From the NCBI GenBank assembly GCA_001823165.1, contig MHTT01000008.1, positions 1 to 48,342 on the forward strand: DNA of 48,342 nt, written 5' to 3'. Under the pieces are notes generated by a model that was not told the origin of the DNA, did no database searches, and saw only the letters and a list, made by a program, of their open reading frames with translations. The position numbers were made by a program, and so were the translations under genes. This document shows positions 4,383-48,342 of the stretch, one piece after another. Numbering within the stretch: position 1 is the first letter of the stretch; the number at the start of each line of letters is the position of its first letter. The DNA comes from Candidatus Wildermuthbacteria bacterium RIFCSPHIGHO2_01_FULL_49_22b. GTDB taxonomy: Bacteria; Patescibacteriota; Minisyncoccia; Minisyncoccales; UBA10102.

Positions 4383-5099
4383 ATGCCAAGAACAAAACCA
4401 GAAAAGGGAAAAATCTACCATATTTTCAACCGTGGCGTAGAAAAGCGGAACATCTTTATATCCGAAGGAGATCGCTGGAGATTTTTGCAGGGGATGTATT
4501 TGTTTAATAATGAAGATTCCACCACAAATCTTCTCTATCGTCTTGAGCAAAGAAAGGGCAAGATGCATTTTGGCATCCTGCGAGATTATATGCAGCGAGA
4601 AGGCGTTAAGCGCAAGCCCTTGGTACGCATTATGGCAGATTGCCTTAAGCATAATCACTTTCATTTTAGCATTGAAGAAACTCAAGAAAACGGCATTTCC
4701 CGTTTTATGCAAAAGCTGGGTATTGGATATACAAAATATTTTAATAAAAAATATGAGCGCGTAGGACCGCTGTTTCAAGGAAAGTTTAAACTGGTAGAGA
4801 TACAAAGCGATGCGCAGCTTATGTATCTTATTGCCTATATTAATGCGATTAACCCCGGCCAAGAGTTAGAGCCAGAACTAAAATCAGTAGCGCAAGATCC
4901 AGAGCAAATCCTTGAGTTTATTCAACATTACCCATGGAGTACTCATTTGGAGTATTTGGGCAAAAGAGATTCTATTATTATAGATAAAGGTGTTGCGGGA
5001 GAATTATTTGGTACCCCAATTGCTTACCGAAAGTTTGTAGAAGATATTGTAAAAGGCAAAAAAAGTTTTGGTTTGTCAAAGAAAGATTTTCTTGAGTAG
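4383..5099 (+). CDS. IS200/IS605-like Y1 (HUH) transposase of the REP-associated RayT type (COG1943-like)
   Basis: YHIFNRGVEKRNIF N-terminus. HUH motif in CLKHNHFHFSI. GPLFQGKFK and the LIAYINAINP Tyr helix. HYPWSTHLEY tail. Flanked on both sides by the same palindrome doublets. Confidence 0.8.
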   Translation: MPRTKPEKGKIYHIFNRGVEKRNIFISEGDRWRFLQGMYLFNNEDSTTNLLYRLEQRKGKMHFGILRDYMQREGVKRKPLVRIMADCLKHNHFHFSIEETQENGISRFMQKLGIGYTKYFNKKYERVGPLFQGKFKLVEIQSDAQLMYLIAYINAINPGQELEPELKSVAQDPEQILEFIQHYPWSTHLEYLGKRDSIIIDKGVAGELFGTPIAYRKFVEDIVKGKKSFGLSKKDFLE

Positions 5100-31471: not shown

Positions 31472-31669
31472 ATATTATGTTGAATGTGTGATACAATTAG
31501 TATACGGGGCGATTAACCAGGGCATGCATTACGTGTATTCCCGCCAGAACTCCGCTTTTGCGGGGTTTTTGTTTTTTCATGATTATTTTTTGATGCCTGG
31601 GGCGAGACCCGGGGAGTGATAAACACTCCCCGCCCCGTGTTCATCACGGGGCGAACTCGCTTGTGCTTG

Positions 31670-31753
31670 TGTCGGAGGAGGGACTCGAACCCTCATGGGT
31701 GTTACCCCACATGGTCCTGAACCATGCGCGTCTACCGGTTCCGCCACCCCGAC
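31670..31753 (-). tRNA. tRNA-Leu(CAG), class II with a long variable arm. CCA is not encoded.
   Basis: The reverse complement folds as GUCGGGG UG GCGGAACCGGUAGACGC G CAUGG UUCAGGA CCAUG UGGGGUAACACCCAU GAGGG UUCGAGU CCCUC CUCCGAC A. Confidence 0.9.
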
Positions 31754-43303: not shown

Positions 43304-43840
43304 ATGCGTAAATTGTGTCCGCATCATCAGACATCTTTAGAGCAAGCAGCCATCTTGGGGGTGCAGATTGATTACTGCCCCCAGGACTACGGCCTGTGGT
43401 TTGACGAAGAGGAACTAAGAGAAGCAAAAGATGCCAGAGACCGGGATTTGAGATGGCTGGATATTGATTTGTGGAAAGATCCCGCCAAGTTTATTCTTTC
43501 CCCAAAGCAAAAGCTGTGCCCCAAAGACCGCCTTCCTCTGTACGAAGTGGAATACGGGGACTCCGGCATTAAGGTGGACGTGTGCAATCTGTGCCATGGG
43601 GTGTGGCTGGACCGAGGAGAGTTTAAAAATCTTACTGTTTACCTGCGAGAGAAAGCCGAACACCGGATTCTGTACCACTATGCCCGAGATGTGTTTGAGG
43701 AGGCCTGGGAAGTGTTTTCGGGGCCTGAAATCTTAAGAGAGGAAATTCTGGACTTCCTGGCTGTGCTCAAGCTTTTAACGTACAAGTTTGCCGCCCAGTA
43801 TGGCCGGCTTTCCCAGCTTATGGTATCTTTGCCGAGGTGA
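43304..43840 (+). CDS. Protein with two TFIIB-type zinc-ribbon (zf-TFIIB-like) modules
   Basis: CPHH...YCPQDYGLWFDEEELREA and CPKD...VCNLCHGVWLDRGEFKNL. The ORF is open from TTG 43295. Its stop overlaps the first bases of tRNA-Ser. Confidence 0.7.
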   Translation: MRKLCPHHQTSLEQAAILGVQIDYCPQDYGLWFDEEELREAKDARDRDLRWLDIDLWKDPAKFILSPKQKLCPKDRLPLYEVEYGDSGIKVDVCNLCHGVWLDRGEFKNLTVYLREKAEHRILYHYARDVFEEAWEVFSGPEILREEILDFLAVLKLLTYKFAAQYGRLSQLMVSLPR

Positions 43841-43925
43841 GGTGGCTGAGCGGCCGAAAGCGATTGCTTGGAGAGCAATTATGCAGGAAACTGCATCGTG
43901 GGTTCGAATCCCACCCTCACCGCCA
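43836..43925 (+). tRNA. tRNA-Ser(GGA), class II, CCA encoded
   Basis: GGUGAGG UG GCUGAGCGGCCGAAAGC G AUUGC UUGGAGA GCAAU UAUGCAGGAAACUGCAUC GUGGG UUCGAAU CCCAC CCUCACC G CCA. Confidence 0.92.
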
Positions 43926-44501: not shown

Positions 44502-46262
44502 ATGCTTCAGTCGCCAATTGAGGAGGTGAAGAACCGCCTGGATATTGTACAGGTGGTGGGAGAATACCTTAAGCTGCAAAAGGCCGGGGCGAACTTTCGC
44601 GCCCTGTGTCCGTTTCATGCTGAAAAAGGCCCCTCTTTTTTTGTGACCCCGGCCCGTCAGATGTGGCATTGTTTTGGGTGCGGCATCGGGGGGAGCGTTT
44701 TTGATTTTGTCATGCACATTGAGGGCTTGGAGTTTGGGGACGCCCTGCGCCTGCTGGCTCAAAAGGCAGGGGTGGAGCTCCCAAAGCGCAGCCCTGCCTT
44801 TGTGCAGCAAGAGACGGAACGAAAGCGTCTTTTGGAAATCACCGAGCTTGCCGCCAGATTTTTTGAAAAGCAGCTGTCTTCAAAGGCGGGAGCGGCGGCC
44901 AAAGAATACTTACAGAAAAGAGGGGTAAGCAACGAGTCGTTTGCGGCTTGGCGCATTGGGTACGCCCCAGGAACCAAACGCTCCATGCTGGATTTCTTGG
45001 TGCAGCAAGGATACCGCGAGCAGGAAATTGGCAGGGCAGGATTGCTGGTGCGGGGAGAACAAGGAGTGTTTGACCGCTTCCGTTCCCGCATCATGTTTCC
45101 CGTGTTCAACCTGCAGGGAGAGGTTATGGGATTTGGGGGAAGGATTTTTGGGAAGGAAGACAAGGACATGGCAAAGTATGTGAATACCCCGAATACACCG
45201 CTGTATGACAAGGGCAGGATTCTGTACGGGCTAGACAAGGCAAAACTGGAGGTCAGAAAGCAGGATTCCTGCGTTCTGGTAGAAGGGTACATGGATGCCA
45301 TCTTGGTTTCGCAGGCAGGCACGAAAAACGTGGTGGCTACGTCTGGGACCGCCCTAACCTCTTTTCACCTTCAGCTCTTGCGGCGCTACTCAGAAAACCT
45401 TGTGCTGGCTTTTGACATGGACATTGCGGGAGATACCGCGACAAAGAGAGGTATTGAACTGTCAATGGCCGAGGGGTTTTTAGTAAAGATTGTGCGTCTG
45501 ACAGAAGGCAAGGACCCGGCTGAAGCCGCGCACAACCCCGAGTCCTGGCATTTGGCCTTGGACAGGGCAACCTCCATCATTGATTACTATTTTGAAAGCA
45601 CGTTTTCCTCTTTTAACAAGAGAACGCTTGATGGAAAGAGCAAGGCGGCCTCCCTTTTGCTTTCCGTCATCTTTAAGCTCCCGAACAAGATTGTGCAGAG
45701 CCACTGGATTCAGCGTTTGGCAGAGGAACTAGGGGTGAGAGAGGAGGCAGTGAGGGAAGAACTGGCAAAGGTGAAGGCCGAACCTCGCCTGCAAAGAACA
45801 AACGCTCCCTTTGCGCTCTCGGCGCGGGAAAAGAAGGGGAGAAGGGAACTGATTGAAGAGCGCATTCTCGTGCTCGTGTTTTGCGACCCAGGCAATCTTA
45901 AACAATTAAAAGAAGAGGACGTCCGCCAGATGTCGCTCACGATGCAGGAAATCGTTGCCGGGCTGCAGCAGGCCGAAAATCTGGAGTTTTCTTCTTTGGA
46001 ACAAGTGTTCTCTCAAACAAATCTGCAGACGGTACGGCACGCAGCCCTGCTTGCTGAACTTGAAAAAGGTGAGGAAGAGCTCAAAGACGAGTTCAGCTTG
46101 TGCTTAAAATCCCTCGCCATCTTTTCCTTAAAAGGGCGCCTGGAGGAGATTATGCGGGAAATCAAGAAGGCGGAAGGGGAACAGGAGTTGTCCAGGATTG
46201 ATTTGCTTTTGCGCGAATTCCAGGAGATAGCCAAGGAGTTGACAGTTCCCCCGACCCCCTGA
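44502..46262 (+). CDS. dnaG: DNA primase
   Basis: Zinc-binding CPFHAEKGPSFFV...WHCFGCG, and a TOPRIM domain with VLVEGYMDAI and AFDMDIAGDTA. Confidence 0.95.
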   Translation: MLQSPIEEVKNRLDIVQVVGEYLKLQKAGANFRALCPFHAEKGPSFFVTPARQMWHCFGCGIGGSVFDFVMHIEGLEFGDALRLLAQKAGVELPKRSPAFVQQETERKRLLEITELAARFFEKQLSSKAGAAAKEYLQKRGVSNESFAAWRIGYAPGTKRSMLDFLVQQGYREQEIGRAGLLVRGEQGVFDRFRSRIMFPVFNLQGEVMGFGGRIFGKEDKDMAKYVNTPNTPLYDKGRILYGLDKAKLEVRKQDSCVLVEGYMDAILVSQAGTKNVVATSGTALTSFHLQLLRRYSENLVLAFDMDIAGDTATKRGIELSMAEGFLVKIVRLTEGKDPAEAAHNPESWHLALDRATSIIDYYFESTFSSFNKRTLDGKSKAASLLLSVIFKLPNKIVQSHWIQRLAEELGVREEAVREELAKVKAEPRLQRTNAPFALSAREKKGRRELIEERILVLVFCDPGNLKQLKEEDVRQMSLTMQEIVAGLQQAENLEFSSLEQVFSQTNLQTVRHAALLAELEKGEEELKDEFSLCLKSLAIFSLKGRLEEIMREIKKAEGEQELSRIDLLLREFQEIAKELTVPPTP

Positions 46263-46410
46263 TTTAGAAACAATGTACCTGGGCATTTCCTTATCTCGCG
46301 GTCCTTCGATAAACTTAGGATATCGTTTGCAGAGAAAATGCCCGCCGAAAGCAAAGCAGTTTGCTTTTGGTCCGCGAGGGGAACTAAAAATTTTGTAAAC
46401 AAAATTTTGC

Positions 46411-47619
46411 ATGGCAATAAAAAAAGGTAAAAAGAAACCAGTCAGAAAAAAGCTGCAAAAGAAGGGCAGGGTTCCAAAGAAAAGAAAGTTGGCTCAAAAA
46501 AGGCGCGCCGCCAGAAAAAAGCCCCTGCGAGAACAAACAAGCAAAAAAAGAAAGGCGTCCCTGCTCCCGGAAGACCAGCTGCGAGGGCTTTTTGAAAGGG
46601 GCCAGCCCCGGGGGTTTGTAACGTATTCTGAAATTTTGTACGCCTTCCCTGGCATTGAAAAGAAAATCCCCGCCCTGGAGGCCTTGTACGCAAAACTTGA
46701 GGAGTCCGGGATTCGGGTGGAAGAGGTGAGGGAGTATCTGAATTTGCCAGAAAAGGAAGAGGTAGAAAGGAGAAAAGTAGAAGAAGAAGCCCCCCTGGAC
46801 CCCGTGCAAATGTACCTGAAAGAGATCGGCAAGATTTCTTTTGTGACGGCCGAGCAGGAAAAGGAGTTGGCAAAACGCATTGAAAAAGGCGACTTGGAAG
46901 CAAAAAAGCAGCTGGCCAGAGCAAATCTTCGCCTTGTGGTTTCCATTGCCAAAAGATACGTTGGCAGGTCTCCGAACCTTACCCTCCTGGATTTGATTCA
47001 AGAGGGAAACCTTGGCCTGTTTCGGGCAGTGGAGAAGTTTGACTGGAGGCGGGGATACAAGTTTTCAACGTACGCTACCTGGTGGATACGTCAGGCCATA
47101 ACCAGGGCTTTAGCTGACCAGGCAAGGACCATACGCATTCCCGTTCACATGATTGAAACCATCTCAAAGTACACCCAGGTAAGGAGGCGTCTCCTGCAGG
47201 ACTTGGGCAGAGAGCCCCTGGCAGAAGAGGTGGCAGCGGAAATGGGGCTGGAAGTGGAAAAGGTGCACCAGATTCAGAGAATCTCCCAGGAAACCGTGTC
47301 CCTGGAGACCCCGGTGGGGGAAGATGAAGAAGACAGCGTGCTGGCAGAGTTTGTAGAAGACGAAAAGGTTCCCCCTCCTTCGGTGGAAGCTGCGCGCAAT
47401 CTTCTCAAGGAACGATTAAAAGAGATTCTCATTGACTTGACCCCGCGGGAACAAAAGATTCTTGCCATGCGTTTTGGTTTGGATGATGGAGTAACCCACA
47501 CGTTAGAGGAGGTGGGGAGTGAGTTTGGCGTGACCCGAGAAAGAATACGCCAGATTGAAGCCAAAGCCCTAGAGAAAATCCGCGACCACCGCTCGTTAAA
47601 GAAACTGAGAGGATATTAA
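46411..47619 (+). CDS. rpoD: RNA polymerase sigma-70 factor RpoD with a lysine-rich N-terminal tail
   Basis: Region 1.2 [11 protein letters not shown], region 2 [12 protein letters not shown]...[17 protein letters not shown]...[13 protein letters not shown], region 3 and region 4 [20 protein letters not shown]. Confidence 0.96.
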
Positions 47620-47669: not shown

Positions 47670-47698
47670 TTGCAATCTTGCGTGTCTTCTCCTATAAT
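47670..47698 (+). promoter_or_regulatory. Candidate promoter of the intron-containing tRNA-Asn
   Basis: TTGCAA, 17-nt spacer, TATAAT. The -10 ends 16 nt before tRNA position 1. Confidence 0.55.
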
Positions 47699-47714: not shown

Positions 47715-47999
47715 TCCGCGGTAGCTCAGCTGGTAGAGCGGCTCGCTGTGAGTAAAGTTGCAGCTTCTTGGAGCAATCCAGGTTGAAAAACGGGGTTAAT
47801 TGCGGGAAACCTAAAGCGAAAGCCAAGGCAATCCGCAGCCAAGGGATGTAACATTTTGCCTTGCAAAATTGTACGTTCAAGGTTCAGAGACTATACGCCC
47901 CGCACCCCTTTGGGGTGATGAGATAGTCCACGCCAGTATGAAAGTATTGGGTTGCGTGTAACGAGATGGTCGTAGGTTCGAATCCTACCCGCGGAGCCA
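47715..47999 (+). tRNA. tRNA-Asn(GUU) interrupted in the anticodon loop by a group I intron. Exons are 47715-47749 and 47959-47999 (CCA encoded).
   Basis: The spliced product is UCCGCGG UA GCUC AGCUGGUA GAGC G GCUCG CUGU|UAA CGAGA UGGUC GUAGG UUCGAAU CCUAC CCGCGGA G CCA. U1-A72, G73 and overall similarity to bacterial tRNA-Asn support the call. One 27-43 mismatch. Confidence 0.85.
47750..47958 (+). ncRNA. Group I self-splicing intron (209 nt, tRNA-intron/IC3-like, no ORF)
   Basis: The canonical core elements are all present: P aattgcgggaaa (~47798), Q aatccgcagc (47830-47839), R gttcagagacta (47882-47893) and S agatagtcc (47921-47929). P1 pairs exon gcugU (47745-47749) with IGS Gcagc (47760-47764), giving a U-G wobble at the 5' splice site. 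The intron ends in G (47958). Confidence 0.88.
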
Positions 48000-48342
48000 A
48001 ATAGGATGATACGAGTTCTCCGCCTCGGGGCTTCGCCCCTCGGCGGGCAAATCGGCGAGAATTTTCCACGACTTTTTGGGTTCAAAGCAAATCGCTTGCA
48101 AGCGCAAAACGCGGTTCGCCGCGCGAAGCGCCGAGGCAACAAACTCACAACATACAATTTGGCTCCGAACGCTGAACGAAATCCGAACATTTTTTAGCGA
48201 AAATCCGAACGCTGAATTTTGACGCTCCGCCCCGCCGCCGCTCGCTACCACTCGCCGCACTACAGAAAAATACTCTTTGCTCTTTTCGTTTTGCGCGCGC
48301 CCAATTTTTTCTTCTAAAAGGAAAAGAATGTTTTGCTTGGCT

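Follow-up and report, generated by a model that had tools for sequence, protein, structure and literature searches.

The DNA analysed here, a stretch of 48,342 nt from Candidatus Wildermuthbacteria bacterium RIFCSPHIGHO2_01_FULL_49_22b, a groundwater member of the Patescibacteria (CPR) (hereafter the window), carries near its 3' end the two halves of a tRNA gene separated by 209 nt. This locus raises three questions: which tRNA the two halves encode, whether the segment between them is a working group I intron, and whether an insertion at this position is new. The reading favoured here, with a probability of about 0.93, is that the segment is a compact group I intron of 209 nt without an open reading frame (ORF), located between U35 and U36 of tRNA-Asn(GUU), removed by guanosine-dependent splicing, belonging to the class named Asn.4Ug and inherited vertically within its lineage.

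The interrupted gene and its group I core

The gene lies on the forward strand directly behind two conserved protein-coding neighbours and a putative promoter:

44502-46262, + strand: dnaG, conserved upstream neighbour of the tRNA-Asn gene
46411-47619, + strand: gene of an rpoD-type sigma factor, conserved upstream neighbour (dnaG and rpoD together span 44502-47619)
47670-47698, + strand: putative promoter of sigma-70 type (TTGCAA-17 nt-TATAAT), about 17 nt ahead of the tRNA
47715-47749, + strand: 5' exon of tRNA-Asn(GUU), 35 nt (nucleotides 1-35), comprising the acceptor 5' strand, the D arm, the anticodon-stem 5' strand and C32 U33 G34 U35; U47749 is the -1 nucleotide
47750-47958, + strand: group I intron, 209 nt (Rfam RF00028)
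47959-47999, + strand: 3' exon of tRNA-Asn(GUU), 41 nt, comprising U36 A37 A38, the anticodon-stem 3' strand, the variable loop, the T arm and the acceptor 3' strand, with G73 at 47996 and an encoded CCA at 47997-47999

The 5' half reads UCCGCGG-UA-GCUC-AGCUGGUA-GAGC-G-GCUCG-CUGU (47715-47749) and the 3' half reads UAA-CGAGA-UGGUC-GUAGG-UUCGAAU-CCUAC-CCGCGGA-G-CCA (47959-47999). Removal of the 209 nt in silico leaves a 76-nt cloverleaf, called tRNA-Asn(gtt) by ARAGORN, in which the predicted ligated junction is GCUCGCUGU joined to UAACGAGA and the tRNA body displays U1-A72 and G73. The latter are features of bacterial tRNA-Asn; G1-C72 and A73 are identity elements typical of tRNA-Thr. The original prediction had placed a 209-nt insertion in CUGU/UAA, between nucleotides 35 and 36, and had read the joined exons as a tRNA-Asn with U1-A72, G73 and a GUU anticodon; both statements were confirmed, the insertion occupying 47750-47958. 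In its default mode ARAGORN calls no tRNA at 47715-47999, and the other tRNAs which it finds in the 48-kb window are Leu and Ser only. The promoter candidate agrees with the consensus at 10 of 12 positions (one site observed against 0.4 expected in shuffled sequences) and was called by consensus match alone. No intrinsic terminator was detected downstream of the tRNA-Asn gene, and in the longer strain contigs the downstream DNA was inspected for a repeated copy of the tRNA 3' end resembling an att site, with a negative result.

The Rfam model RF00028 matches positions 47740-47950 over its full length (model positions 1-253) with 92.5 bits, above the gathering score of 50, and an E-value of 1.4e-22, far from anything that chance would produce, in agreement with the group I assignment first proposed; in this alignment the consensus splice-site U falls on U47749. 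There is no ORF internal to the 209-nt intron, the overlapping ORFs of at least 40 aa being read-through artefacts that run past it. The structural elements are as follows, all on the + strand, with the compensatory and paired fractions taken from the covariation analysis presented below:

47745-47764, + strand: P1, exon strand GCUGU (47745-47749) with guide GCAGC (47760-47764); U47749·G47760 is the wobble pair at the 5' splice site
47767-47782, + strand: P2 hairpin, 6 bp with a GCAA (GNRA) loop; 6/6 pairs compensatory, 98.1% of cells paired
47791-47795, + strand: P3 5' strand CGGGG, partner of 47898-47902; 4/5 pairs compensatory
47801-47837, + strand: P4 with P5/P5a; P4 is 47801-47806 with 47832-47837 (99.8% paired, 5/6 pairs compensatory), and the P and Q motifs are here
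47810-47828, + strand: P5/P5a, inside P4, with a GAAA loop
47838-47883, + strand: P6 with P6a; P6 is GCC 47838-47840 with GGU 47881-47883, and the peripheral P6a hairpin is 47844-47878
47887-47893, + strand: P7 5' strand G(A)GACUA, in the R motif, forming a pseudoknot with 47924-47929; expected to bind guanosine
47898-47902, + strand: P3 3' strand CCCCG, partner of 47791-47795
47903-47917, + strand: P8 hairpin, 6 bp; 5/6 pairs compensatory
47924-47929, + strand: P7 3' strand UAGUCC, in the S motif
47930-47958, + strand: P9.0 with P9; P9.0 is ACG 47930-47932 with CGU 47955-47957 (3/3 pairs compensatory), and omega-G is G47958
47933-47950, + strand: P9, inside P9.0, with a GAAA loop; 7/7 pairs compensatory

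The P, Q, R and S motifs that had been recognized in the sequence are indeed present, at 47798, 47830, 47882 and 47921 respectively (R and S being UCAGAGACUA and AUGAGAUAGUCC), and the proposed P1 between the exon and GCAGC, with its U-G wobble at the 5' splice site and a terminal G on the intron, corresponds to U47749·G47760 and G47958. Standard pairs suffice to draw every canonical helix, and the core helices are all intact; a minimum free energy fold computed without constraints recovers P2, P3, P4, P5, P6, P6a, P8 and P9. P10 is weak, with 3 bp (GUU/AAC) offset by one nucleotide in the window intron, and the corresponding pairing of the guide region with the 3' exon, sought in the relatives, amounts to 0-2 bp in most of them, so that no P10 is claimed.

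The splice junction and the identity of the host tRNA

Homologous loci were collected by a pattern scan of 185,579 species-representative genomes, anchored on the intron S element and the 3' exon, which yielded at least 120 loci. A strict exon parser requiring U8, A14 and the D stem resolved 110 of the 120 listed loci as CUGU/intron...G/UAA (slashes marking the splice sites), the remaining 10 being left unparsed, several of them ended by contig edges. Among these 110 parsed homologues from the matches listed, G73 occurs in all, U1-A72 in 107, and a P1 of at least 4 bp with the U·G wobble in 102; a terminal G ends the intron in 110 of 110, a count that is not independent evidence of omega-G across the family, since the scan pattern demanded this nucleotide. 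At least 110 species-level genomes carry the intron at site 4 of tRNA-Asn, and they belong to Patescibacteria, Omnitrophota, Nitrospirota, Cyanobacteria and other phyla.

Uninterrupted genes were sought on metagenome contigs with the predicted ligated 24-mer CGGCUCGCUGUUAACGAGAUGGUC as the query. The exact 24-mer is present, without interruption, on 58 contigs, six of which have rpoD just upstream (64-74% identical to that of the window) and a tRNA called Asn(gtt) by ARAGORN. Judged by this linkage, the six loci are orthologous "empty sites" that match the predicted splice product exactly. Rfam reports a plain tRNA at two of three tested empty-site loci (L183 and L184); the tRNA of the third (L147) is uninterrupted too and is reported 81 nt off in the coordinates of the tool.

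These data bear on the host tRNA, whose assignment needed a real test of the junction, because a second junction 2 nt upstream likewise has U at -1 and G at omega. If exon 1 ended at U47747 and the intron at G47956, the host would be a tRNA-Thr(UGU) interrupted between nucleotides 33 and 34, which is precisely what ARAGORN reports in its intron mode, as tRNA-Thr(tgt) i(34,209); a Thr.2Ug class is present in the seed alignment of Williams (bioRxiv 10.1101/2020.01.27.920355). The original prediction had foreseen that another exon parse might lead to an already known intron-bearing tRNA. Such a parse, Thr(UGU) at site 2, does exist formally, but it fails on the comparative evidence. The sole U·G wobble of P1 is at U47749, whereas U47747 pairs with A, and the consensus splice-site U of RF00028 also speaks against the upstream junction. 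The tRNA body has the Asn features and not the G1-C72/A73 of tRNA-Thr. In 46 of the 110 parsed homologues among the matches listed the intron tails are UUG, AUG, UCG, CUG, ACG and others, not GUG, making the Thr junction impossible there; the Asn junction is the sole one valid in all 110. Finally, CUGUUAA is the sequence at the orthologous empty sites, whose tRNAs are called as Asn. On the P1 wobble, the tRNA body, the intron tails and the empty sites, the tRNA-Thr(UGU) parse was rejected; it is effectively refuted, with practically no probability left to it.

Selection on the fold, activity and descent

With the host settled as tRNA-Asn(GUU), the fold of the intron was compared across the family. 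A covariance model (R1) was built from the source organism alone, combining the core of the window intron with the short P6a of a strain variant. It gives 222.5 bits with its own sequence and 40-118 bits with homologues, and finds full-length matches in essentially all of the 120 listed loci. RF00028 gives 72-91 bits in six representative relatives; two further loci (L084 and L016) have no RF00028 entry at the gathering threshold, yet reach about 76 bits with the model of the source organism.

The 88 best matches to this model were aligned to it, with P7 entered as a pseudoknot. Standard pairs were found in 93.7% of cells, compared to 35-42% when the 3' partners were slid by 1-3 columns; an alignment fitted to a structure inflates the paired fraction, and the slid and shuffled controls argue against this as the explanation. 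Compensatory changes affect 46 of the 58 pairs in these 88 homologues, the covariation score reaches 0.525, the slid versions giving 0.04-0.09, and none of 500 shuffles matches any of the observed covariation measures. Such changes are present in P2, P3, P4, P5, P6, P6a, P8, P9.0 and P9; the exon strand of P1 is fixed by the tRNA, and the sequence of P7 is near-invariant over the 88 homologues. The family-wide compensatory substitutions indicate selection acting on the intron fold.

On this basis the following course of events is proposed. The tRNA-Asn gene would be transcribed alone from the sigma-70-like promoter, and the intron, as the model score and the covariation show, folds into a canonical P1-P9 core. 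By the mechanism of the family, an exogenous guanosine held in P7 would attack the phosphodiester 3' of U47749, which forms the U·G wobble of P1. As in group I introns generally, G47958 would then take the guanosine site, and the 3'-OH set free on U35 would attack after G47958. Joining of the exons would yield CU-GUU-AA and thereby make the GUU anticodon, the exons being aligned probably by the anticodon stem and not by a strong P10. Four elements of this scheme are directly shown: the fold, the omega-G, the wobble pair U·G by which the 5' splice site is defined and, from the empty sites, the exact ligation product.

Variation among strains bears on the same point. The window sigma factor is identically encoded on at least eight groundwater metagenome contigs (Rifle ANAN16, JGI 3300002502, 3300025323 and several ENA assemblies). 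Across seven other assemblies of the source organism the intron shows 100% identity, the exception being a variant (L005) in which the 35-nt P6a is swapped for an unrelated 15-nt hairpin and one base of L1 is changed, the remaining intron and both exons being unaltered. This pattern is what would be expected if the ribozyme is functional and can do without the peripheral element.

The intron could instead be a decayed relic that no longer splices, in which case the interrupted gene would be a pseudogene and Asn codons would be decoded by another, uninterrupted tRNA-Asn. The visible part of the genome is only 48 kb, which leaves room for a second such gene; in addition, P10 is weak. Against a relic stand the intact core helices, the compensatory substitutions pointing to selection for the fold, and the retention of a near-consensus promoter and of the encoded CCA. 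Intron and exons are moreover conserved over eight assemblies, the single variant altering the peripheral P6a, where a hairpin is kept, and one L1 base. CPR genomes are small and usually hold one copy of each tRNA, and no uninterrupted copy of the exact tRNA of the window occurs on the metagenome contigs, the closest differing at 7 positions. A relic is accordingly considered very improbable, and the element is a real and well-formed group I intron that is probably functional.

A different issue is how the intron came to its place. Long introns of more than 400 nt are found in 28 of the 110 parsed relatives among the matches listed, and within them, on the sense strand, is an ORF of about 100-120 aa that displays an invariant CxxC...HH...CxxCH signature. 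All 21 aligned ORFs were scanned against Pfam HNH, and 16 of the 21 match, single-sequence scans being marginal; a profile search of these ORFs against the PDB returned one weak match, to a group II intron maturase, which was not used. Since relatives longer than 400 nt bear HNH ORFs, the family includes mobile members, with the window copy as an ORF-less form. The homing endonuclease that characterizes a mobile group I intron is absent from the window copy, and this intron is probably an immobile form derived from relatives equipped with an HNH enzyme of that kind.

Long residence with vertical descent was weighed against recent acquisition from another organism through homing or reverse splicing. 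By RpoD, the closest named relatives of the source organism are Patescibacteria, for instance a Nealsonbacteria MAG at 60% identity. Arrival from outside would fit the HNH endonucleases encoded by about a quarter of the family members among the matches listed, and the distribution of the Asn site-4 family, which spans many phyla and even DPANN archaea. It would fit, too, the patchy presence of the intron among relatives at similar RpoD distance: one locus (L088) has the intron and another (L183) lacks it, both at about 74% RpoD identity, from which it follows that gains and losses occur. The window copy, however, lacks an ORF and so is unable to home on its own. The identity of the intron core tracks that of RpoD in 19 syntenic CPR loci (Spearman rho 0.62; none of 2000 permutations as high), and the order dnaG-rpoD-tRNA-Asn is common to about 30 intron-bearing loci among the matches listed and to six intron-less loci. 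No recent donor is visible, as the nearest intron among the matches listed from species-representative genomes is only about 73% identical over 183 nt. A recent horizontal origin is therefore regarded as unlikely. The window intron looks fixed in its lineage, and the correlation suggests mainly vertical descent.

Known tRNA introns and the meaning of the Asn insertion

The classical group I introns of bacterial-type tRNAs interrupt tRNA-Leu(UAA) in cyanobacteria and plastids, tRNA-fMet, tRNA-Ile(CAU) in Azoarcus and tRNA-Arg(CCU) in Agrobacterium, and these four belong to subgroup IC3. They share with the window intron a P1 built from anticodon-loop nucleotides and GNRA tetraloops on peripheral helices, and the P2-P9 layout of the window intron resembles that of the 205-nt Azoarcus ribozyme. 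They differ from it in their host tRNAs and in the position of the insertion, at loop sites 3, 2 and 5 as opposed to site 4. The preprint of Williams KP cited above extended the four classical classes to 21 with the use of ARAGORN, Rfam and tRNAscan-SE, and its seed alignment includes Pam37.Asn.4Ug, that is, an Asn host, site 4, U-1 and omega-G. This comparison does not support the suggestion that Asn(GUU) might be a new insertion site: the preprint of 2020 lists both the host and the site, and with at least 110 genomes carrying the intron they are also widespread.

The window intron is assigned to the catalogued Asn.4Ug class by (i) its host, tRNA-Asn(GUU); (ii) its insertion at site 4; (iii) U-1 and omega-G; and (iv) homology to the seed through the covariance model. 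Pam37 has the same host tRNA and the same 35/36 site, and is 93-97% identical to three cyanobacterial loci of the genome scan (L107, L037 and L027), which the model of the source organism matches over their full length with 55.5-59.8 bits. Compared directly, Pam37 and the window intron are about 52% identical. Pam37 is 273 nt long and has, in the alignment of the preprint, extra helices after P2 and P7, which the minimal 209-nt intron of the window lacks. On account of this low identity and the missing helices, the window intron is placed in a separate sequence subfamily within that class.

The R and S motifs of the window intron differ from the GUAGAGACUA and AAGGGAUAGUCC of the IC3 class seeds in the preprint and are closer to the seeds of its new, non-classical classes; the compact P2-P9 layout, which has no extra helices after P7, resembles that of IC3. 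The Tyr.4Ug and Asp.4Ug seeds of the same source are 53-59% identical to the window intron and have the same CUGU context before the splice site, with a P1 of the type CUGU/...GCAG. They reside in other host tRNAs, and their 3' exon begins with A or C, in contrast to the U of Asn. The context shared by Tyr, Asp and Asn stems from the C32-U33-G34-U35 common to tRNAs with GUN anticodons.

In the literature searched, neither a peer-reviewed description of an Asn-hosted group I intron nor an experiment on one was found. The combination of tRNA-Asn and group I intron led to organelle papers and to one cyanobacterial tRNA paper of 2017, set aside as irrelevant because its "group I introns" are of 22-49 nt and interrupt tRNAs for Arg, Gly and Lys. 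Searches on DPANN or other archaea and on Patescibacteria found nothing on tRNA group I introns.

Three DPANN archaeal MAGs were observed to have the same intron in a tRNA-Asn of archaeal type (G1-C72, no CCA). The contigs concerned also encode aIF-2beta and display conserved archaeal synteny, which shows that the archaeal intron loci are real. They would be group I introns in archaeal tRNA genes, in which, to our knowledge, only protein-spliced introns of the bulge-helix-bulge kind are expected.

For annotation the consequences are direct. The default mode of ARAGORN misses the gene and tRNAscan-SE 2.0, according to the paper describing it, is not designed for the detection of group I introns, so that the organism would seem to be without tRNA-Asn; the intron mode of ARAGORN mislabels the gene as tRNA-Thr(UGU). 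As the host and site are catalogued and widespread, the finding opens no new question. Its value lies in a clean, minimal 209-nt representative with natural variation of P6a, suited to a first experimental test of the Asn class.

For the family as a whole, a broader view is tentative and judged somewhat less probable than its opposite: the site-4 intron of tRNA-Asn may be old and mostly vertically inherited, its removal being required for the maturation of tRNA-Asn in much of the Patescibacteria, and the family may have crossed into DPANN archaea. If this is true, the standard annotation of those Patescibacteria genomes shows them as lacking tRNA-Asn. For the source organism, if the interrupted gene is its only tRNA-Asn gene, the reading of all AAC and AAU codons would hinge on a ribozyme reaction that needs a free guanosine nucleotide, and splicing would be essential. 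Such a dependence would be notable for a symbiont with a reduced genome; it would not be new in principle, since the tRNA-Leu of cyanobacteria likewise relies on group I splicing.

Strain variation and the region downstream of the tRNA-Asn gene

Some of the metagenome contigs of the window organism (L001-L008) differ from the window, in the intron or in the 3' exon of the tRNA. The strain variant L005 (ERZ27254754, 6192-6385), with an RpoD identical to that of the window, carries an intron of 189 nt. In place of the 35-nt P6a hairpin (window 47844-47878) it has a 15-nt hairpin of unrelated sequence, GUCGCC-UAA-GGCGAC; G47757 in L1 is replaced by A, and all other positions are identical. In L001-L004 the intron is unaltered, and the 3' exon has single-nucleotide changes: C48 to U (window 47970) in L001, L003 and L004, and C66 to A (window 47988) in L002. 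The latter would disrupt the acceptor pair G7-C66 and may be an assembly error. Two other tRNA genes of the window are uninterrupted:

31669-31753, - strand: tRNA-Leu(CAG)
43836-43925, + strand: tRNA-Ser(GGA)

When window 48000-48342 is compared with the ends of contigs L001-L008, contigs of several independent assemblies end no more than about 420 nt past the 3' end of the tRNA-Asn gene, and L005, L006 and L008 depart from the window sequence 112 nt after it. Further on lie HTH_3 genes and a gene matching LexA/S24 peptidase and DNA methyltransferase domains. These observations suggest that a strain-variable or integrated element adjoins the tRNA-Asn gene. A search downstream in the longer strain contigs gave no att-like repeat matching the 3' end of the tRNA. 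Eleven IMG/VR contigs classed as "viral" also match the scan pattern, several of them at a contig end.

tRNA-Thr calls and possible mis-parsing of site-4 introns

In intron mode, ARAGORN assigns a large share of the Asn genes in loci L009-L128 to Thr(tgt). The cause is an intron tail in GUG, which permits a second junction with U at -1 and G at omega. The seed Pgr210.Thr.2Ug in the alignment of Williams (2020; bioRxiv 10.1101/2020.01.27.920355) begins CUGUC…GGCAG, and its P1 wobble thus falls after CUGU. For this reason, judged by the 5' end of the seed alone, the Thr.2Ug class may partly consist of mis-parsed introns at site 4 (between anticodon nucleotides 35 and 36) of GUN-anticodon tRNAs.

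Archaeal tRNA-Asn loci

The same group I intron, at site 4 of tRNA-Asn, was identified in three contigs of archaeal assignment:

L011:1943-2179, Pacearchaeota JAGVXA010000008.1
L016:1151-1351, Pacearchaeota JAFCDH010000004.1
L114:2716-2959, Nanoarchaeota JBFYLU010000046.1

All three introns score 72-77 bits with the covariance model built from the window organism's intron, and those of L011 and L114 reach 82-83 bits with Rfam RF00028. Each host gene is an archaeal-type tRNA-Asn, with G1-C72, G73, a T-rich 3' flank and no encoded CCA. In L011, aIF-2beta (PF01873, 104 bits) lies a short way upstream. The gene order KH/PNO1-like, tRNA-Asn, nitroreductase-like, FtsZ is common to all three, and these contigs therefore look like true archaeal DNA rather than mis-binned bacterial DNA, the origin that Williams (2020) supposed for a Pacearchaeota match. 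The literature searched yielded no account of group I introns within archaeal tRNA genes.

HNH reading frames in long introns

Among the matches listed, introns longer than 400 nt occur in 28 of the 110 loci parsed, out of at least 120 from species-representative genomes (for example L087, L013, L043 and L114). Conserved in the long introns is an ORF on the sense strand, about 100-120 aa long, which starts 13-67 nt inside the intron and has the invariant residues CxxC…HH…CxxCH. A Pfam HNH match was obtained for 16 of 21 such ORFs (best E 3.5e-6), and the archaeal intron of L114 also contains an HNH ORF. Besides its tRNA-Asn intron, locus L026 contains a second region that matches the intron model, less strongly (4686-4897, + strand, 40.1 bits) and about 1.6 kb away; this may be a further group I intron, in a neighbouring gene. 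The HNH ORF probably encodes the homing endonuclease of the Asn site-4 intron family.
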